A DNA stretch of 64,000 nt from Oscillospiraceae bacterium (GCA_015063325.1 SVUK01000014.1:9918-73917); one strand, 5' to 3'. Positions 4,862 through 58,209 are shown, counted from the stretch's first letter. The notes: generated from the letters alone by a model not told the origin. A program made the numbers and translations.

Positions 4862-4995
4862 GATTCGCGCGGAGCGCGAAGGAAGATAGCAAAAACTTTT
4901 TTTGAAAGTTTTTGATCCAACTTTTTACAAAAAGTTGGTAGGGTTTGGGACAAAGTCCCAAGGGTTTCCTTTCGCGCTCCGCGCGAACTTTCCAT
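4862..4995. repeat. Intergenic palindromic repeat cluster C2 (extra RC hairpin plus an LSR unit)
   Basis: TTCGCGCGGAGCGCGAA (4864-4880), TTGATCCAACTTTTTACAAAAAGTTGG (4912-4938), GGGTTTGGGACAAAGTCCCAAGGG, TTTCGCGCTCCGCGCGAAC. Confidence 0.85.
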
Positions 4996-5013
4996 ACTTT
5001 TTGATAAAAGGAG

Positions 5014-5808: not shown

Positions 5809-5811
5809 GGG

Positions 5812-6090
5812 GGAGGGAAGACCTTGAGGGGGAGGAAACTTTTTTGCAAAAAAGTTTCCTCCCCCTCAAACTATCCTGTTGCGGTGCCCGAAAATCGCTA
5901 CGGGCGCATACGCGCTAATCCTTGCGCTTTTCGACCGCCGCCTGTGGCGGAAGCAGGGAGCGCGAGGAGTGGCAGCGGTCAAAATTTTGAAGCGGCAACG
6001 CCGCGCCACAAAATTTTGGGTACCGCAACAGGAGAGCGCGAGAGGGGGAAGAACTTTTTGCAAAAAGTTCTTCCCCCTCTCGCGACCTTT
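5812..6090. repeat. Intergenic palindromic repeat cluster C3 (GE hairpin, PQ composite, GE-type hairpin)
   Basis: A 46-nt perfect hairpin at 5824-5869. A PQ element at 5875-6032, bounded by inverted CCTGTTGCGGTGCCCGAAAAT / AAATTTTGGGTACCGCAACAGG. A hairpin GCGAGAGGGGGAAGAAC..GTTCTTCCCCCTCTCGC at 6038-6083. Confidence 0.85.
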
Positions 6091-10087: not shown

Positions 10088-10309
10088 TCAATCGTCGGTT
10101 GCGTGCGAATACGATTCGCGCGCACGGAAGATGAGAGAGATGCACCAAAGTCCGGCAAGCGCAACCACGGTGTAGATAATGCGCGAGAGAAGGGAGGAAG
10201 AACCGCCGCAAATACGCGCCACCAGGTCGAATTGGAACAAGCCGATGCTGCCCCAGTTCAGCGCGCCGATCACAACGAGGATCAACGCGATCCGATCCAT
10301 AATCATCAT
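10088..10309 (-). CDS. DUF378 domain membrane protein
   Basis: ORF 10088..10471 trimmed to the ATG at 10309, with an AAAGGAG RBS. The segment MMIMDRIALILVVIGALNWGSIGLFQFDLVA is the DUF378 signature. Confidence 0.75.
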   Translation of the reverse strand: MMIMDRIALILVVIGALNWGSIGLFQFDLVARICGGSSSLLSRIIYTVVALAGLWCISLIFRARESYSHATDD

Positions 10310-13025: not shown

Positions 13026-13964
13026 ATGCGTATTTTATTTATGGGAACGCCGGATTTTGCCGTTTTTTCACTGCGTGCGTTGGTGGAAGCCGGCATGGAC
13101 GTGGTTGCCGTCGTTACGCAACCGGACCAGCCCAAAGGGCGCGGCTATGTGCTGACGCCGCCGCCGGTCAAGATTTTCGCGCAGGAGCATGGCATTCCCG
13201 TTTATCAACCCGTACGGCTCAAAAACGGCGAATTTGATGAAACGCTGGCAGAGATTGACCCCGAACTGATCGTTGTCACGGCGTACGGAAAGATTTTGCC
13301 CAAATCGCTGTTGGATTATCCGAAATACGGCTGCGTGAATGTTCACGGATCGCTCCTGCCCGAATACCGCGGCGCGGCGCCCATGCAGCGCGCCATTTTG
13401 GAGGGAAAGAAAGAAACCGGAATTACCACCATGCTGATGGACGAGGGATTAGACACCGGAAAAATGCTGTTACAGGTTCGCGTTCCGATTGAAGAAAACG
13501 ACAATTTTGAAACGATTCACAACAAAATGGGAGAAGCCGGAGCTCCCCTGTTGGTAAAAACCATTCAAGGGATTGCCGAGGGGAGCATTGCGCCGGTGGC
13601 GCAGGACGATTCCAAATCCACCTATGCCGCAAAAATCGAGAAAGCCGACTGCAAGATCGACTTTTCCAAACCGGCGCGCGAGGTGCATAATCGGATTCGC
13701 GCGCTTTCACCGGTTCCGCTTGCCTTTACGCACTTACCGGACGGCAAACTCTTAAAAGTGGTGGTGAGTGAACTTTCCGCCGAAAAATGGGAGCCGGCTC
13801 CTGCCGGAACAGTGATTTCGGTTACGGGCGGAGCGATTACGGTTGCCTGCGGCGAGGGTACGATACGGCTTTTGGAGCTGATTCCCGAGGGCAAATCGCG
13901 CATGAGCGCCGCCGCCTTCATCAACGGTCGCAAAATCGCTGTTGGAGACCGGCTGGGAAACTAA
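13026..13964 (+). CDS. fmt: Methionyl-tRNA formyltransferase
   Basis: ATG at 13026 follows GAAGGAGAA. Motifs seen: MRILFMGTPDFAV, NVHGSLLPEYRGAAP and MDEGLDTG. Confidence 0.9.
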   Translation: MRILFMGTPDFAVFSLRALVEAGMDVVAVVTQPDQPKGRGYVLTPPPVKIFAQEHGIPVYQPVRLKNGEFDETLAEIDPELIVVTAYGKILPKSLLDYPKYGCVNVHGSLLPEYRGAAPMQRAILEGKKETGITTMLMDEGLDTGKMLLQVRVPIEENDNFETIHNKMGEAGAPLLVKTIQGIAEGSIAPVAQDDSKSTYAAKIEKADCKIDFSKPAREVHNRIRALSPVPLAFTHLPDGKLLKVVVSELSAEKWEPAPAGTVISVTGGAITVACGEGTIRLLELIPEGKSRMSAAAFINGRKIAVGDRLGN

Positions 13965-13965
13965 A

Positions 13966-14268
13966 AGTTTTTGATCCAACTTTTTTCAAAAAGTTGGCGG
14001 AGTTTGAGGGGACGAGCGCGACTACCGCCCGTGGCGGAAGCAGGGAGCGCGAGGAGTGGCAGCGGTCGAAATTTCTGCGAGCAGCTATGCGAGCAAAAAG
14101 AAATTTCGGGCACCGCAACAGGAACGGAGCCTCAAGGTCTTTTTTCGCGCTCCGCGCGAACAAAAAGCACCGAAGGTTCGCGCCTTTGGCGCGAAGAAAG
14201 GTCGTGGGACTTTGTCCCACACCCTACCAGCTTTTTTGCAAAAAAGCTGGGCAAAAAACTTTATTAAA
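13966..14268. repeat. Intergenic palindromic repeat cluster C4 (L hairpin, PQ composite, inverted LSR unit)
   Basis: TTGATCCAACTTTTTTCAAAAAGTTGG at 13971-13997. PQ copy at 14007-14122. TTTTCGCGCTCCGCGCGAAC, TTCGCGCCTTTGGCGCGAA, GGTCGTGGGACTTTGTCCCACACC and CCAGCTTTTTTGCAAAAAAGCTGG up to 14268. Confidence 0.85.
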
Positions 14269-18338: not shown

Positions 18339-18344
18339 AAAAAG

Positions 18345-18778
18345 AGAGAGGAAGACCTTGAGGGGGAGGAAACTTTTTTGCAAAAAAGTTTCCTCCCCCT
18401 CAAACTCCTCCTCTTTCAAAAAACTCCAACCAAGAGGGGTTGGAGTTTTTTTGAAAGTGACTTTCTGCACCGCTCCGAATGAGGAATGACAGAGAGCAAT
18501 ACTTTTTCAGTTCGACTGTTTTGATCAAACCTCACTCGGAGCAGAAAACAAAATCGTTTTCAAAAACTCCAACCTTTATTGGTTGGAGTTTTTGAAAAGG
18601 GAGGGGACGGGCGCGACCGCCGCCGGTGGCGGAAGCAGGGAGCGCGAGGAGTGGCTGCGGTCGAAAAGCGCAAGGATTAGCGCGGATGCGCCCGTAGCGA
18701 TTTTCGGGCACCGCAACAGGATGGCTTGGGGGAGGGAGAAACTTTTTCCAAAAAGTTTCTCCCTCCCCCAAGGTCTCC
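18345..18778. repeat. Intergenic palindromic repeat cluster C5
   Basis: GE hairpin at 18358-18403, identical to the 5824 and 39149 copies. AAAAACTCCAACC..GGTTGGAGTTTTT hairpins at 18418-18452 and 18562-18593. PQ copy at 18601-18720. GE-type hairpin at 18726-18772. Confidence 0.85.
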
Positions 18779-21039: not shown

Positions 21040-21545
21040 CACAAAAAAGAAAATCGCAACCGGTGGGGGAGGTGGAAAGACCTTGAGTTGGGGTGGGAGG
21101 CTTTTCTTGAAAGAAAATGCCTCCCACCCCCCTCTTAAATTCTCTTCCACCCACCAAAAAATTTTTAAAAAAAAGGAGAAAGAAATCGTTTTTGATTTTG
21201 CTTTTTGCAGATTTTATCAAGGGTGCTAAAGAAAACCACATTCAAAAATTCCCCCAAAATCCCCTTTTTAAAGTTCTTTCAGGGGGTGGGGACGAGCGCG
21301 ACCGCCGCCTGTGGCGGAAACAGGGAGCGCGAGGAGTGCAAATATTCGCTTTCGCGTAGCGAAACGCCGGTGTTCAGCCGGCGAGAATATTGCGTAGTGA
21401 GCCGTTTGCGGCGAACGTTGGCAGCAGGTCGAAATTTCTGCGAGCAGCAATGCGAGCAATAGAAATTTCGGGCACCGCAACAGGGTGGTGCAGGGGGAGG
21501 GGGACATTTTCTTTCAAGAAAAGTCCCCCTCCCCCTGCAGATTCT
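21040..21545. repeat. Intergenic palindromic repeat cluster C6
   Basis: GGGGTGGGAGGC..GCCTCCCACCCC hairpin at 21090-21130. An A/T-rich linker related to 34800-34925. The longest PQ copy at 21287-21484, carrying the 82-bp insert at 21339-21420. TGCAGGGGGAGGGGGAC..GTCCCCCTCCCCCTGCA hairpin at 21489-21539. Confidence 0.85.
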
Positions 21546-21562
21546 TCCCACATGTCCGGAGG

Positions 21563-22438: not shown

Positions 22439-22649
22439 GATTTATACAAAGGAGCCGTTTTTTTCGTAAAAAGGAGACAGCGCGGCTTTTTTTCCGGCAA
22501 ATTCACGCTATGTTCATATTTGCATGATATAATATGAATTTATAAAACACAGTATCGTTTGAAGTTTATAGAATACGGCATAATGTGAACCAATAGAGTG
22601 CGGCATAGCATGAATTTATAGAACATGGTATGGCATGAATTTATAAAAA
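22439..22649 (+). repeat. Dispersed copies of the A(A/T)TTTATA(A/G)AA motif upstream of the ABC operon
   Basis: GGATTTATACAAAGG at 22439, ATGAATTTATAAAAC at 22534, GAAGTTTATAGAATA at 22561, ATGAATTTATAGAAC at 22611 and ATGAATTTATAAAAA at 22635. Several copies are preceded by GGCAT. A TGATATAAT extended -10 lies at about 22524-22532. Confidence 0.7.
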
Positions 22650-22737: not shown

Positions 22738-22812
22738 GCAAATTTATAAAAGACAAATTTATAAAAAGCAAATTTATAAAAAGCAAATTTATAAAAGGCA
22801 AATTTATGAAAA
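22738..22812 (+). repeat. Five head-to-tail 15-bp repeats (G/A)CAAATTTAT(A/G)AAA(A/G) directly upstream of the ABC ATPase start
   Basis: Copies at 22738, 22753, 22768, 22783 and 22798. The array ends at the RBS AAAGGGAGGA. Confidence 0.9.
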
Positions 22813-22825
22813 AGGGAGGATCCAC

Positions 22826-34649: not shown

Positions 34650-35065
34650 GATAGCAAGAGGGGAGAAACCTTTTTGAAAAAAGGGTTTCTCCCCTCGCGC
34701 ACTCTCCCCGCTTCTAATAATTTTCAGGGAGAAGGATATGCCGGGGGAGGTGGGCTTTTCCGAAAAGAAAATGCCCACCTCCCCCGGTATTCCCTCCGCC
34801 CAAAAGAAATCAAAAAAAGGTAAAAGGAACGCTTTTTTACGTCTGTTTTTTGTAAATTTCATCAAGGACGCTGAAGAAAAAACACTTTCAAAAACTTTAA
34901 AAAGGGGACTTTTTAAAGTTTTTGGAAAACGGTTTTCCGCACAGCTCCGGATAGGTTTTATTTTCAGCCTCTATTTATAAAGTTTTGATCCAACTTTTTC
35001 AAAAGTTGGTAGGGTGTGGGACAAAGTCCCACGACCTTATTTCGCGCCTTTGGCGCAAACCTTCC
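34650..35065. repeat. Intergenic palindromic repeat cluster C7 (GE, GE variant, linker, M2, LSR)
   Basis: Hairpins at 34658-34696 and 34741-34786. M2 module at about 34885-34975. LSR unit at 34970-35065. Confidence 0.85.
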
Positions 35066-35119
35066 TTGCTTTTTTTGCCGAACTGGAAGGGAATATTCTG
35101 TCACTTTCCACAAAATAAA

Positions 35120-38406: not shown

Positions 38407-38583
38407 ATGTGGTCGTGGCTCGGTCAGAACATCGGTTGGCTTTTGGTGCTTGCCGGACTCATTGCGGTCGTTGCCGTGCTGGTCGTTCGCCTGATCCGCG
38501 AACGGAAGACGGGAAAATCCTGCGGCTGCGCCGGTTGCGCCGGCTGCGCCTATGCAAAAAACTGCCCTTCGAATAGGAAGTAG
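38407..38583 (+). CDS. FeoB-associated Cys-rich small membrane protein (58 aa, below the ORF-track cutoff)
   Basis: ATG at 38407 follows GAAGGAGGG. The product is MWSWLGQNIGWLLVLAGLIAVVAVLVVRLIRERKTGKSCGCAGCAGCAYAKNCPSNRK: one TM helix followed by CGCAGCAGC. Confidence 0.7.
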   Translation: MWSWLGQNIGWLLVLAGLIAVVAVLVVRLIRERKTGKSCGCAGCAGCAYAKNCPSNRK

Positions 38584-38587
38584 GAAG

Positions 38588-38640
38588 GCCGCGAGGGGGA
38601 GGAACCCTTTTTGAAAAAAGGGTTCCTCCCCCTCGCGCTC
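38588..38640. repeat. GE-type hairpin (cluster C8)
   Basis: GCGAGGGGGAGGAACCC-TTTTTGAAAAAA-GGGTTCCTCCCCCTCGC at 38591-38637. Confidence 0.85.
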
Positions 38641-38677
38641 CCTCTCTTCCAAAAAACTTTCAGAAAAGGAGATTTTT

Positions 38678-38944: not shown

Positions 38945-39197
38945 CCTGTAAAATGCATGGAAGGTTCGCGCGAAGCGCGAAAAAAGACCTCGGGGTTTCA
39001 CCCCGAACCCGGACAACCTTTTTGAAAAAGGTTGATCAAAAACTTTATAAATAAGGGCTGAAAATAAACCCTATCCGAAGCAGTGCGGAAAGCCGCTTTT
39101 AAAAAAACTCCAACCTCTTTTGGTTGGAGTTTTTTGAAAGAGGGGGAGTTTGAGGGGGAGGAAACTTTTTTGCAAAAAAGTTTCCTCCCCCTCAAGG
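38945..39197. repeat. Intergenic palindromic repeat cluster C9 (inverted LSR, inverted M2, GE)
   Basis: GGTTCGCGCGAAGCGCGAA, CTCGGGGTTTCACCCCGA and GGACAACCTTTTTGAAAAAGGTTGATC. M2 inverted at about 39045-39140. GE hairpin at 39149-39195, identical to the 5824 and 18358 copies. Confidence 0.85.
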
Positions 39198-39199
39198 TC

Positions 39200-39553
39200 T
39201 TACCCTCTCTCTGCTGTCACGATCACATCTGCGCCGGTGTCCCGGAAGTTGGGGATAACGACGTCGCCGATATGGGTGGGCAGGGTAACGGTTGCGGCGT
39301 TGATCTCTTTCATGCAGTCGAAGATCAGCTCTTTTGGGATGGTTTTGCTGGTCTTGACCGGAACGGGATCGCCATTGGTGGCGCGCACGGTCGAAGTGAC
39401 GGTGCGCATGGGGTGGGTGCATTCATCGATGGCATATTGCTTGCCGCGTGGGCAGGCAAAGCCTTCAACGCTTTCAATTTTCCCGTCGGCGGTGAGTTCC
39501 GCTTTGAGCGAACAACCGCGCGGACAAACGATACAAGTCAATTCTCTCGTCAT
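39200..39553 (-). CDS. DUF1667 domain protein (third subunit of the glpA-like cluster)
   Basis: ORF trimmed to the ATG at 39553 (MTRELTCIVCPRGC). It has the Cys-rich N-terminus typical of DUF1667. Confidence 0.8.
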   Translation of the reverse strand: MTRELTCIVCPRGCSLKAELTADGKIESVEGFACPRGKQYAIDECTHPMRTVTSTVRATNGDPVPVKTSKTIPKELIFDCMKEINAATVTLPTHIGDVVIPNFRDTGADVIVTAERG

Positions 39554-42325: not shown

Positions 42326-42399
42326 GTGCGGCGAAAAAGTTGAAAAACGCGCAAAATTTTGCGAAAAACGCGCAAGAATAAGCAACTTGGAACGGGGAA

Positions 42400-42845
42400 A
42401 GACATTGGGGGAGGGAGAAACTTTTTTCAAAAAGTTCTCCCCTCACCCAACCCCCCAACCCTGTTGCGGTACCCGGAAATCGCTGCGGGCGCATTCGCGC
42501 TGATCCGTGCGCTTTTCGACCTGCTGCCAACGTTCGCCGCAAACGGCTCACTACGCAATATTCTCGCCGGCTGAACACCGGCGTTTCGCTACGCGAAAGC
42601 GAATATTTGCACTCCTCGCGCTCCCTGCTTCCGCCGCAGGCGGCGGTCGCGCTCGTCCCCTTTTTAAAAAACTTCAAAAAGGGAACTTTTTGGAGTTTTT
42701 AAAATAGGCTTTCTGAACTGCTCCGAATCGGGTTTATTTTCAGTCTTTATTTATAAAGTTTTGATCCAACTTTTTCAAAAGTTGGTAGGGTGTGGGACAA
42801 AGTCCCGCGATCTTCTTTCGCGCCTTTGGCGCGAACTTTCCTTGC
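42400..42845. repeat. Intergenic palindromic repeat cluster C10 (GE variant, inverted PQ with insert, M2, LSR)
   Basis: Imperfect GE hairpin at 42406-42446. PQ at 42460-42660 on the minus strand, carrying the same 82-bp insert as the 21.3 kb copy. M2 at 42662-42755. LSR at 42750-42842. Confidence 0.85.
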
Positions 42846-42950
42846 TTCCTTTCACGCTTTTCTCATTTTATTTTTCATTTAAAGTAAAATTTATTCAAAT
42901 TATTCAAAGTAAAATCCGCTCGTTATTTTCAAAAAATTTCTCCAACCCTC

Positions 42951-45884: not shown

Positions 45885-46162
45885 AGGGGAAGGTTAGGCC
45901 GCGAGAGGGGAGGAACCTTTTTAGAAAAAAGGTTCCTCCCCTCTCGCGCTCTCCCCTCTTCCAAAAACTTTAAAAAGGGGACTTTTTCAAGTTTTTGAAA
46001 GCGGATTTCCGCACTGCTCCGGATAAGGTTTATTTTCAGCCCTTATTTATAAAGTTTTTTTGTCCAGCTTTTTTGCAACGCAAAAAGTTTCTTTTTTTCA
46101 AAAAAGAGGATAGGGTTCGGGGTGAAACCCCGAGGTCTTATTTCGCGCTTTGCGCGAATCTT
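45885..46162. repeat. Intergenic palindromic repeat cluster C11 (GE, M2, LSR variant)
   Basis: GCGAGAGGGGAGGAACC..GGTTCCTCCCCTCTCGC at 45901-45947. M2 at 45958-46045. An LSR variant ending in TTCGCGCTTTGCGCGAA at 46142-46158. Confidence 0.85.
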
Positions 46163-55950: not shown

Positions 55951-58209
55951 TTAGGGATGCGAGTTCGGATCGGTCGGGTCGGAAATCAGCTCTGCGGTAA
56001 TCATAATGGTTTGTGGATTCAAAACGTCATCGTACAAATAAACCATTTTAATCTCTTCGCCGTCACATGCGCCGTCGTTATCGCTATCCTTTTTGTTTTT
56101 GCTGAGCGAATACTGTTTTTTGAAATTAAAACCAGCAAAAAGCGTTTCGTAATTGTCTTCATAGTAGTCAACAATTCCGTCGCCGTCGGTATCGGTTGCC
56201 AGGTCAATCTGATTGCCGATGTTATCAAATACATCCCAAAGATTATCGGCTATCTTCGCAAACTGATATGATCCTCCAGTTCGTTCAGCCAACGGTTTCA
56301 AATAATTTGTAAAATAGCTCGAGGAGGCAGAAGTTCCAAGTCCAACGGTAAATGTCGTAATGTCTTTATTGTTCAATTGCGAAATAACGGTATTCAGCAT
56401 TGAAGTGTCCGTTGTATCACCATCTGACAAAACAATCATAATTTTGAGTGCAGACGAGTCGCTGGAAAACAGCGAAAGGGCGTTCTGAACTGCGGTAAAC
56501 ATTTTTGTTCCACCGCTGGAACGGAAATATGTGGTTGTAAACAGATTTTTAACAGTATCTTTATTTGTTGTTAAAGTGCTTGTTAAATTGGATGAAGAGC
56601 TTTCAAATCTGACAACTCCGAATTTGATATTGGTTCCATCACCAAGTCTGTCAACAATATTCCGGGCAACCTGAAGTCGGATGTTAGAAGAGTCGTTCCA
56701 GTCCATACTGCCTGAGTCATCAATTACAAATACAATTTCGGCGGTTTTATAGGAAACGGTTCCTTTGCGCCAAACATCCTGAAATTTGTTTTTGGCTTTG
56801 AATTCTCTGTGGTCAATCAAAATATAGGTAGAGAAGTGCTCGACTTCGGCACTGGCAACGTTGCCGCTGATGGTGGTGTTCAGCTCGTAAATGTGTTTTG
56901 CACCATTCTCTTCTTTTACATAGGCAACAACGGGTTCAAAATCAGGATTGTTCAGCAGGCTGGCATCAAATTCAAAGCCGATGGTTGCGCTGGTAAAGCT
57001 TCCGGACACGCTGAAATCGTAAGCATTTCCAAGCGTTCCGTCCATTTGATCCAGTGCCGCATCCGTTACAGGTTGAATGCTCAAGCTTTCCGCCTGCTCG
57101 CCGGTCAAACCGTCAATTTGTACAGCCGGTTTTACAGTGTCGCCGGTATCAATTTGAATGTTTACATTGAACGAAGTGTTTGCATAGCGCGGATCAAATC
57201 CATTCGCAACCTCCCAACCGTCGCTTGCACCATCGCCGTCGGTGTCCGGGTCAAGCGGATCAGTCCAATAGGTATTGACTTCTGCGCCGTCTTTGAGTCC
57301 GTCACCATCGGTATCCGGCTTTGTGGGATCGGTCAAATTGACAATTTCAGTAGCGTTGTTTAAACCGTCGTTGTCATAATCTTCTTTTCCATCGGGAATC
57401 CCGTCGCGGTCTGTGTCGGAATTCTGATAATTCAATCCAAGCAAACCTTCGTAGTAATCCGGAACTCCGTCTCCATCGGTATCGGTGCTATAATCGATTT
57501 GATAGATACCAAGAACGGTAATATCGGCATGAACACTTTGGAAAGGTGCGTTCCATGTCAGGAATTTGAAGCCGGGCATAAAGCGCTCGCTTGCAGTGGG
57601 CTCGGGAGAAGCATCTCCGTCATAAACGGTATAAGATTTGATCAGTTGGTTGTTGCCGTTCAGGAAGGTAACCGTCCAGGTTTTCTGGTAAATACCGTGA
57701 ACGACAGTGTCTTTTTGAATGTTATCAAACGACTTATCCCAGCCGATCCATTCGTATCCGGGAACATATCTTTCTGCCGGAGTGGGTTCAACGGCGGCGT
57801 TGCCGCTTCTTACCTGTTGCTCGGAAATAAGATGTGTGCTATCTTCGGCAATAGAATAGAACAATACATTATAGAAAGGATAATCCTGAACATTCAGAAT
57901 GAATTCTAAAATTTGTCCGTTAAATAAAAAGCCAATTTTGCTTTTGCCGGGGGAGTTTACCAAAGCCTTTTGATCTGTGTCCAGCATATCATAAGTCAAT
58001 GGAATTGTGTCGGTTGTTTTGTCAGAATATGTAATTAAAATTTTAATATTTGCCTGATCAAATTCTCCGACATAGATTACTTTTGGAACATTGATAACTT
58101 CAATTTTTTCAATTTCTTTGCTTGGTAAGCCGGCAAAGTTACATGCCGCGAAAGCAAATACCATTAAAATAATGAGTGAGATGAGTAGTAGGGCTTTTGT
58201 TTTTTTCAT
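55951..58209 (-). CDS. Large surface lipoprotein: two InlB-B/Flg_new-type repeats, thrombospondin type-3 Ca-binding repeats, VWA domain
   Basis: Signal peptide plus lipobox-like FAFAAC. Repeats ending ..HGIYQ and ..LGIYQ. Many DTDGDG.PD / DSDNDG motifs. VWA MIDAS motif VIDDSGSMD with LSDGDT. Confidence 0.85.
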   Translation of the reverse strand: MKKTKALLLISLIILMVFAFAACNFAGLPSKEIEKIEVINVPKVIYVGEFDQANIKILITYSDKTTDTIPLTYDMLDTDQKALVNSPGKSKIGFLFNGQILEFILNVQDYPFYNVLFYSIAEDSTHLISEQQVRSGNAAVEPTPAERYVPGYEWIGWDKSFDNIQKDTVVHGIYQKTWTVTFLNGNNQLIKSYTVYDGDASPEPTASERFMPGFKFLTWNAPFQSVHADITVLGIYQIDYSTDTDGDGVPDYYEGLLGLNYQNSDTDRDGIPDGKEDYDNDGLNNATEIVNLTDPTKPDTDGDGLKDGAEVNTYWTDPLDPDTDGDGASDGWEVANGFDPRYANTSFNVNIQIDTGDTVKPAVQIDGLTGEQAESLSIQPVTDAALDQMDGTLGNAYDFSVSGSFTSATIGFEFDASLLNNPDFEPVVAYVKEENGAKHIYELNTTISGNVASAEVEHFSTYILIDHREFKAKNKFQDVWRKGTVSYKTAEIVFVIDDSGSMDWNDSSNIRLQVARNIVDRLGDGTNIKFGVVRFESSSSNLTSTLTTNKDTVKNLFTTTYFRSSGGTKMFTAVQNALSLFSSDSSALKIMIVLSDGDTTDTSMLNTVISQLNNKDITTFTVGLGTSASSSYFTNYLKPLAERTGGSYQFAKIADNLWDVFDNIGNQIDLATDTDGDGIVDYYEDNYETLFAGFNFKKQYSLSKNKKDSDNDGACDGEEIKMVYLYDDVLNPQTIMITAELISDPTDPNSHP

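Follow-up and report, generated by a model that had tools for sequence, protein, structure and literature searches.

Short interspersed nuclear elements (SINEs) lack an open reading frame (ORF), are ~100–300 nt long, multi-copy and based on structured RNA, and have no terminal repeats but long target duplications of variable length. The put RNAs of phage HK022 are cis-acting antitermination RNAs with two stems, which occur more than once per phage at operon heads; to our knowledge, no multi-copy spread of put RNAs in chromosomes has been described. Among bacterial repeats, the BOX elements of Streptococcus pneumoniae and Streptococcus suis (boxA-boxB(n)-boxC, boxE/F, boxD) have terminal inverted repeats and target-site duplications (PMC3049150). 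Repetitive extragenic palindromes (REPs) are 20–40 nt long and tagged by GTAG or CGTC (PMC3733652), and Correia and ERIC elements are co-transcribed with neighboring genes and exist in length variants (PMC3184786). Here we analyze the PQ element in a 64,000-nucleotide stretch from an Oscillospiraceae bacterium (GCA_015063325.1 SVUK01000014.1:9918-73917, hereafter the window), with the copy at 21288–21486 as the focal one. An earlier note, made from this sequence, had described PQ as a composite repeat with conserved stems, interchangeable apical caps and an optional 82-nt insert. We think it probable, if by no means certain, that gut Clostridia and their phages share a mobile structured element with two domains and no ORF, and that PQ is its chromosomal branch. 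This element of ~110 nt is apparently undescribed and looks more like a novel type of small mobile structured nucleic acid than like an ordinary species-specific repeat.

A 51-nt PQ core is found four times in the window with ≤3 mismatches (at 14008, 18603 and 21288 on the + strand and at 42610–42660 on the − strand), and shuffled sequences are expected to contain 0 such matches. Together with a partial fifth copy these matches place PQ at all five sites reported before, every one of them intergenic. The statement that all copies share the core is correct for four, but the fifth (5875–6033) keeps only its 3' 34–41 nt. This copy is a recombinant, in which an inverted stem-B arm (5875–5942, − strand) is fused at a 7-nt microhomology (CGACCGC) to a core without its first ~17 nt. 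A profile built from all copies detects none beyond the five in the window, and the 7.3 kb to the left of it hold no additional copy. In the focal copy the profile matches 21289–21338 and 21419–21485, and in sequencing run X1 the repeat boundaries are sharp at 21284–21288 and 21484/5. The copies, and the parts of the focal copy, are as follows.

5875–6033, + strand: recombinant copy, consisting of an inverted domain-2 arm with cap B, the core, and domain 2 with cap C
14008–14124, + strand: copy without insert, with cap A, between fmt and rsmB (core match)
18603–18722, + strand: copy without insert, with cap B, between rsgA and a MatE gene (core match)
21288–21486, + strand: focal copy, consisting of domain 1, the 82-nt insert, and domain 2 with cap A (core match)
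21305–21327, + strand: P2 hairpin CCGCC-TGT-GGCGG, then the near-invariant AAACAGGGAG loop (family signature)
21339–21420, + strand: optional 82-nt insert between the domains
21421–21484, + strand: domain 2 of the focal copy, with P3 (GCAGG/ACCGC), a 3-nt bulge (GGC), P4 (CGAAA/TTTCG), the cap A apex and the tail AACAGG (from alignments with pair counts)
42458–42660, − strand: copy with the 82-nt insert (42528–42609) and cap B (core match)

Relatives of PQ in phages first surfaced in a low-stringency blastn search of the focal copy against GenBank phages, which returned six virome scaffolds. The matches cover only the hairpin part of the core; reading onward from them reveals the same architecture with other letters in the helices. 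The family signature GACCGCCGCC-NGN-GGCGGAAACAGGGAG is present in all five window copies with 0–2 changes (AAG or AAA before CAGGGAG; CTACC in the 14-kb copy), and the core is found in 88 IMG/VR phage loci, located with the search pattern GACCGCCGCCNGNGGCGGAAACAGGGAG, in addition to the six GenBank scaffolds. The IMG/VR loci contain ~100 instances in 80 distinct contexts, several contigs having two copies, and neighboring phage genes encode the large terminase, the major head protein and an internal virion protein. Phage and chromosomal elements are equal in length and in their two-domain layout. A covariance model (R1) calculated from 26 IMG/VR and GenBank phage copies, and containing no window sequence, finds every window copy, with E values of 7e-12 to 2e-9 for the three without insert; in the insert-bearing copies domain 1 alone is matched (37 and 33 bits).

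5923–6033: R1 match of 66.5 bits, E in the range 7e-12 to 2e-9; a further match at 5874–5955 on the − strand has 20 bits
14011–14123: R1 match of 55 bits, E 2e-9
18609–18721: R1 match of 60.8 bits, E 1e-10
21296–21330: R1 match with E 1e-5, domain 1 only
42618–42652: R1 match, domain 1 only

By these sequence comparisons, the five PQ repeats are chromosomal copies of a phage-associated element family. Exact-pattern scans of genomes yielded three loci in rumen metagenome-assembled genomes (MAGs). The 18-mer CAGGGAGCGCGAGGAGTG returned 49 loci from JGI metagenomes, all of them chance or coding matches with no true copy, and 0 matches in viral contigs, because phage copies differ at this place (GGGAGG/GGGAGC..). 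A concatenated six-frame "protein" of the core retrieved only three foreign ORFs, plasmids gave no match to the element, and a full-text literature search for the signature sequence likewise found none. In two "Bacteriophage sp." virome scaffolds (L070 6800–6915 and L073 1743–1858) the element directly follows an ORF ending ..FVQKYFEKGFMAGAVKG, which resembles a sugar ABC-transporter permease, and a 552-aa ORF without PHROG match lies downstream; the two scaffolds could stem from bacteria and not from phages.

Alignment A3 covers PQ and the phage copies in full, over 107–120 nt. Domain 1 consists of helix P1 around a near-invariant hairpin and loop (GACCGCCGCC-NGN-GGCGGAA(A/G)CAGGGAG), and domain 2 of P3 (5 bp) and P4, with a 2–3-nt bulge between them on the 3' side, an apex that varies freely, and a tail (CGCAAC). 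In the phage copies alone, 92% of cells are paired and 14 of the 29 pairs have changes on both sides; their covariation score was reached by 0 of 500 shuffles, and sliding the partners by 1–3 columns reduces pairing to 24–55%. With PQ included (37 sequences), P3 is 100% and P4 92% paired, six of nine pairs covary, and both helices covary between the phage and rumen branches. Compensatory variants are found in the outer helix (GCGGT/ACCGC, GCGGC/GCCGC, GCGCT/AGCGC, GCGTT/AACGC) and in the inner one (CGAAA/TTTCG, CTGCA/TGCAG, CAGCA/TGCTG). P1 is the most variable helix (CAACGAUUUC/GAAAUUGUUG, CAACGGCAAC/GUUGCCGUUG, CAGCGGAGGC/GCCGAGGCUG, AAAAUUGC/GCAAUUUU), and P2 and the AAACAGGGAG loop are invariant columns in the 37 sequences. 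The terminal stem of the earlier note is backed by many compensatory changes in the collected and aligned copies. Of its suggestion of a structured RNA family with a variable peripheral stem, the structured family and the variable stem are supported by the pairing of the helices, their compensatory changes and the varying apex.

G·U cells outnumber A·C cells in the phage rows (20 versus 7), one P1 position has G·U as its most frequent pair, and tandem G·A pairs cap P1 in many copies; the G·U excess and the tandem G·A pairs indicate that the strand shown is the strand that folds. In annotated phage contexts the folding strand is the sense strand of the adjacent genes, and we infer that the folded strand is an RNA. 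(Orientation by ORF length was discarded for the G+C-rich phage loci, where shadow ORFs make it unreliable.) P1 spans 7–10 bp in phage copies, and in the same register the 11 rumen copies are unpaired at most P1 positions, with only a predicted 3-bp GCG/CGC remnant; the rumen branch has lost P1.

The base of the terminal stem (GCAGCGGTCGAAA...TTTCGGGCACCGCAACAGG), which had been proposed as conserved, is kept in all window copies, tail included, and the stem is predicted to fold with a 3-nt bulge on its 3' side. The insert is 100% identical over 82 nt between 21339–21420 and 42528–42609, as expected from the claim that it is common to two copies with different caps (A in the 21-kb and B in the 42-kb copy). 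These two copies are 99% complementary over 147 nt (the same sequence in inverted orientation), and their apical sequences differ. The insert is predicted to form a closed stem that contains two hairpins, and a small third hairpin in addition, and the folds drawn previously correspond to the minimum-free-energy folds. The stem-loops fold better than shuffles, with z scores of −3.8 to −7.4 for caps A, C and D, and −1.5 for cap B. Neither the core by itself (z −0.95) nor the insert (z −1.3, −2.0) does so, and single-sequence folding energies are uninformative (z −0.6 to −2.4, both strands).

The assignment of caps to copies was correct (A at 14 kb and 21 kb; B at 18 kb, 42 kb and in the inverted 5.9-kb arm; C at 6.0 kb), but A and C, which had been called unrelated, can be aligned (GAGCRGC..GCGMG), with B differing more. 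Outside the window further versions exist (D in locus L003, E in run X27). PQ copies group by cap type across genomes and not by genome, with core identities of 89–95% between and 92–97% within genomes. Recombination between modules, as suggested before, is seen in the same core and insert carrying either cap A or cap B, in the 5.9-kb chimera, in a phage chimera (L139) and in a phage deletion form (L141). Specifically, L141 (oriented position 10105) has lost domain 2 by a deletion between two GGGAGCCG octamers, and L139 (oriented position 10185) has a chimeric P1 from two classes in one phage; the phage copies L128 and L137 are truncated.

Nested insertions of independent MITEs (miniature inverted-repeat transposable elements), the other explanation offered for this modularity, do not fit. 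Caps and insert were never found outside the element in ~170 kb of collected sequence. The element ends (GGGGACGAGCG.. and ..CCGCAACAGG) are not complementary, inverted ends being confined to the recombinant 5.9-kb copy, and no short duplication was detected at the edges of element, cap or insert, nor any common flank among 12 copies. With 59–71% G+C versus 51.8% for the window, the element is also not AT-rich in the manner of MITEs.

Filled and empty alleles are found at one phage site (class 1), at the start of a phrog_12105 gene. The empty phages (L166, L168, L170) read ..GGAGGTCTTTTA TGACAGTAGGAAAGGCAATCGAAAC GGC.., and close relatives (L075, L164, L165, L169, L171) have 164 nt extra at that point, made up of 139 new nt (the element and a 30-nt tail) and the 25-nt target once more. 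The outer P1 pairs are formed by the end of the upstream copy of this target, and in most filled class-1 phages GAAAC has become GCAAC, by which an A·G mismatch becomes a C-G pair. The 25-nt duplication restores the beginning of the interrupted gene. An upstream ATG opens an ORF through the element that stops at a TAA 4 nt before the restart GTG of the gene, and this GTG is preceded by GAAAGGA, which resembles a ribosome-binding site (RBS). In two other phage classes, imperfect direct repeats of 16–27 nt bracket the element. In one class they are found before a gene (MLQLFAEGE..) that adjoins the major head gene, and in the other they surround a terminator-like hairpin upstream of a gene adjoining the large terminase gene; the gene behind the hairpin possibly encodes the small subunit and has no PHROG match.

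In three phage classes the element lies between direct repeats at gene starts, and this would also be seen if the element and the second repeat copy were removed from the mRNA like an intron, or skipped by ribosomes. Removal between equivalent repeat points would restore the frame (MMDLQLFA joined to EGE..), and in P1 an internal strand pairs with letters that come from the target, much like an internal guide. However, ~110 nt is far below the size of known self-splicing introns, no Rfam intron or ribozyme model matches (window copies to E 10, phage loci at gathering thresholds), and the chromosomal copies are mostly intergenic; the repeat copy downstream brings a start codon and an RBS of its own, which makes removal unneeded. 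We regard this explanation as highly improbable.

The same phage contexts could be read as those of a cis-regulatory RNA of late or structural operons (acting in leader function, processing, re-start or antitermination) that is not mobile, with PQ as decayed leftovers spread by recombination. In annotated contexts the element is co-directional with the genes and lies 60–270 nt before their starts. They encode the large terminase and the major head protein, or are the phrog_12105 gene (with that of the internal virion protein) and an ORF of ~3000 aa. The class-1 upstream ORF that crosses the element and ends 4 nt before the GTG of the true gene, with its RBS-like GAAAGGA, the intrinsic terminator following the element in one class, and the strong covariation with G·U bias are all features that such an RNA might have. 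The downstream genes, however, are mutually unrelated, a downstream terminator is found at 11 of 65 copies, nearly all of one class, and related phages lack the element at the same site. Moreover, bacterial genomes hold 30–40 copies in either orientation and after terminators, and a 25-nt target duplication is the mark of an insertion and not of a leader. We consider a purely cis-regulatory role unlikely. Antitermination of the put type was rejected on the same count of downstream terminators (11 of 65 copies only, nearly all in one class).

The window is part of the housekeeping chromosome of an uncultured spore-forming Clostridia bacterium (with genes for SpoIIGA, FTHFS, transketolase, fmt, rsmB, rlmN, rsgA, FeoB and LepA), a species that only gut and faecal metagenomes of ruminants have yielded. 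A 359-kb JGI contig is identical to the window. We compared the window with sister species of the same gene order (Fmt 85–87% identical in amino acids, fmt 82% in nucleotides), in which the spacers at three PQ sites are short and without the element: 42 versus 310 nt between fmt and rsmB, 44 nt (a plain terminator) versus 442 nt between rsgA and the MatE gene, and 161 versus 615 nt between the ECF and M23 genes. Model R1 finds nothing in the syntenic loci of sister species, and one sister-species genome (ruminal_MAG_200) contains the element at a different locus (L002). At the 14-kb site, L058 and contigs of run X27 read TTGAGG followed directly by CGGAG, uninterrupted; in the window 115 nt (GGAC...CAACAGGAA) are inserted exactly there, within the loop of a small hairpin (CTTGAGG/CCTCAAG), and no letters are duplicated between the filled and empty sites. 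In L003 the element occupies the center of a palindrome whose arms are 18 bp long. Two chromosomal copies that adjoin tRNA-Ser genes (L062, L001b) are bracketed by direct repeats of 23 to 30+ nt. At L062 (3932–4330) the copy is embedded in a partial second copy of the tRNA-Ser(TGA) 5' half, ~150 nt from the intact tRNA, and adjoins a phage-type integrase, an excisionase and an FRG-domain gene.

Sequencing depth in the source-like run X1 (single copy 430x) corresponds to ~32 core copies, ~5 genome copies of the 5' half of the insert and ~10 of its 3' half, and ~17–21 copies of cap A, with sharp repeat edges at both ends and many different flanks. In the single-organism-like run X35 the depth corresponds to ~41 core copies, and the class-1 site is empty. 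The depth in X1 suggests that PQ is present at about 30 copies per genome in the window's species. Four of the ~30 estimated copies lie within 16 kb (5.9–21.5 kb) and five within 37 kb, a clustering that exceeds an even spread and may be a selection effect of the scan.

The intergenic DNA around PQ is crowded with other hairpin modules, beside or inside which PQ is found. Those beside the window copies are as follows.

18557–18598: terminator-like T hairpin directly 5' of the 18-kb copy
21492–21537: G-rich perfect palindrome (G), 3–15 nt after the element
18726–18771, 42405–42450, 5824–5869 / 6038–6083: G palindrome, likewise

The arrangement of T hairpin and element recurs at the 42-kb copy and in L002 and L065. 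In total, at least five other hairpin module families make up this mosaic: W (CCAACTTTTTTCAAAAAGTTGG), V (GGTCGTGGGAC-TTT-GTCCCACACC), R (TTCGCGC-n-GCGCGAA), T (AAAAACTCCAACC..GGTTGGAGTTTTT) and G (G5AGGAAAC-T6GCA6-GTTTCCTC5). They occur at 283–480, 4896–5000, 5810–5872, 6038–6085, 13964–14006, 14126–14262, 18343–18600, 18726–18771, 21060–21131, 21492–21537, 34654–35076, 38577–38650, 38959–39210, 42395–42453, 42662–42852 and 45887–46160. Module arms covary between copies, the modules are absent from the matching sister-species spacers, and depth suggests ≥30 copies per genome for the G palindrome. A mosaic insertion has altered the end of fmt (window 13940–13975 versus L059 3504–3545): in the sister species the stop codon lies in a hairpin loop (AAGCTTTTTTGAAAAAAAGCTT), an arm of which is lost in the window, where the protein ends in ..RLGN rather than ..DKLF.

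This setting raises the question of whether PQ is selfish or structural DNA only, a mosaic module of the BOX, BIME or NIME kind that is moved by recombination or by an HUH enzyme (IS200/IS605, RAYT), forms hairpins as single-stranded DNA and has no RNA role. The mosaic itself is what one would expect, as is the location of PQ in or next to palindromes (the CTTGAGG/CCTCAAG loop at 14 kb and the 18-bp-arm palindrome of L003). Microhomology chimeras (5.9 kb, L139, L141) also fit, and so does the absence of terminal inverted repeats and short duplications in an element with hairpins ~17 nt from its 5' end and 7 nt from its 3' end, an arrangement like that of IS200/IS605. Yet the end hairpins (H1 and H2) are unlike each other, which is not as in IS200/IS605, and no constant flanking tetranucleotide is seen, the letters before GGAC being GAGG, GTGG, AAGG, AGAG, GGGG, CAAG or AGTG. 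There is no Y1/HUH gene in the window or in the Pfam lists of neighboring loci, and no RAYT/Y1 transposase among the ~50 window ORFs. The G·U excess relative to A·C and the tandem G·A pairing are more what one expects of RNA, orientation in phages follows the genes, and the 25-nt target duplication is unlike the products of HUH transposases. On balance we give an explanation by DNA alone only a small share of the probability.

We therefore return to PQ as the chromosomal branch of a mobile structured element. A single strand of the element would fold into two independent domains, and the element would propagate by insertion into DNA, mobilized presumably in trans. In phages it would land a few codons into genes or just before them and duplicate ~25 nt of target, such that the interrupted gene start is rebuilt downstream and P1 gains its outer pairs from the final letters of the target. 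In the window's species it would have been amplified to ~30 copies in hairpin-rich intergenic DNA while P1 decayed. Because the domains would fold independently, the 82-nt module could sit in the linker between them, and the apex of domain 2 would be free to diverge or to be exchanged at short homologies; recombination at such homologies would then produce what had been described as interchangeable caps. More tentatively, and with more doubt than belief, we entertain that gut Clostridia and their phages harbor here a class of mobile structured RNA, without ORF and so far undescribed, that is SINE-like or RNA-guided and mobilized in trans. Such RNAs would insert at the 5' ends of genes (protein genes and tRNA-Ser) with a duplication of ~23–27 nt, their P1 would pair with the target end, and they would carry or create re-start signals for the interrupted gene.

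Several observations weigh against reading PQ as part of a mobile structured element. An empty allele is available at one phage site only, a search for class 4 having returned filled sites only, and the covariation would fit hairpins in single-stranded DNA equally. The two reliable pairs of filled and empty chromosomal junctions (14 kb, L062) are imprecise by 1–4 nt; no flanking direct repeat of ≥14 nt is present at any of the five window copies, so that the insertion signature seen in phages is absent there. No mobilizing protein was found, transposase and recombinase domains being absent from the ~50 window ORFs. Two or three window copies are antisense to flanking genes, and several lie just after terminator-like hairpins with no promoter match; this orientation and terminator context fit selfish DNA better than a working RNA. 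Finally, metatranscriptome contigs cover the element at a depth of 2–3, equal to that of mRNA fragments, and are strand-less. In the bovine gut metatranscriptome X26, a 178-nt contig corresponds to 21311–21484 at a depth of 2.9, with DNA carry-over possible and unitigs breaking at repeat edges in any case.

If the fold is that of an RNA, it is a covariation-supported motif absent from Rfam 15 that occurs in ~100 gut phage contigs and at 30–40 copies in at least two bacterial genomes, which would place it among the more abundant unassigned structured elements of gut Clostridia. Its insertion signature (no inverted ends, a 25-nt duplication rebuilding the gene start, target letters in a helix) is unusual, and the mechanism of mobilization is worth finding; we know of no named bacterial mobile-element class with such a signature. 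In practice, the element can mislead the annotation of metagenome-assembled rumen and gut genomes, because it breaks short-read assemblies (unitigs end at its edges), creates spurious ORFs (P0121–P0124) and alters gene ends.

The window contains other repeats. A composite of ~190 nt is found at four places.

34880–35076, − strand: ~190-nt composite repeat
38959–39145, + strand: ~190-nt composite repeat
42662–42852, − strand: ~190-nt composite repeat
45952–46160, − strand: ~190-nt composite repeat

It is ordered R-V-W, then GGCTGAAAATAAACCCTATCCGRAGCAG.., then a T hairpin, and includes a promoter-like TTGAAA-N17/18-TATAAA within W, followed after ~45 nt by the terminator-like hairpin. It could be a small multi-copy transcription unit, and a promoter scanner gives no flag. 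Two tandem arrays (22534–22645, 4.4 copies of 25 nt; 22738–22814, 5.1 copies of GCAAATTTATAAAAA) are found immediately ahead of an ABC-transporter ATPase gene or at its start and may be operator-like repeats. At 56157–57486, within a 752-aa ORF (55951–58209, − strand), four repeats of a degenerate 40-nt motif probably encode a repeated Asp-rich peptide motif of the calcium-binding type.

Searches against known RNA classes, among them the Rfam scan proposed in the earlier note, gave no family for the element. At the gathering threshold Rfam 15 reports only a tRNA in the window. With E up to 10 the element is unmatched at 13990–14140 and 21200–21560, and at 18540–18730 it is touched only by scattered matches with scores far under gathering level, the stronger ones lying on neighboring hairpins. 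Twelve phage loci at the gathering threshold contain only an unrelated PreQ1-III riboswitch (122.8 bits), located at a separate place on an element-carrying phage contig (L081 6903–7004, − strand). Integron attC sites were rejected, as CCGCAAC and GCAGCGG do not fit the cores RYYYAAC and GTTRRRY and the flanking genes are syntenic housekeeping genes. Group II domain V and fragments of signal recognition particle RNA, RNase P or tmRNA were rejected from the sequence of the element and for lack of an Rfam match.

Comparison with described systems reveals partial likenesses. Like BOX elements, PQ is an intergenic repeat of modular build, with conserved modules at its ends and internal ones that can be absent or exchanged, has a predicted fold that tolerates an optional module, and is restricted to a lineage with dozens of copies (PMC3049150). 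PQ differs from BOX in having neither terminal inverted repeats nor duplications and in its phage relatives with strong covariation, and it is apparently without sequence similarity to the box modules. With REP/BIME elements and their RAYT (IS200/IS605-like) enzymes, and with palindrome-associated elements derived from IS200/IS605, PQ shares a hairpin basis, the absence of terminal inverted repeats and short duplications, and intergenic palindrome mosaics. Unlike these, however, it is ~115 nt long, asymmetric and without any tag or target that stays constant, and the duplication of 25 nt in phages is at odds with such elements. Correia and ERIC elements likewise show length classes from an optional internal block and subtypes from the recombination of ends (PMC3184786), but they possess terminal inverted repeats and TA duplications, and PQ has neither.

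The phage elements themselves recall group I and II introns, in that these are mobile structured RNAs in phage structural genes in which a helix pairs flanking "exon" letters with an internal strand. Such introns are at least 250–400 nt long and have defined catalytic cores and no target duplication, and Rfam intron models are unmatched by our element. Like the put RNAs of HK022, the element has two stems, is found in more than one copy per phage and stands at operon heads; it differs in that terminators follow it in one context class only, and it is not known to have any sequence relation to put. Its likeness to SINEs is an analogy, a reverse transcriptase partner, an A-tail and an internal promoter being features of the SINEs.

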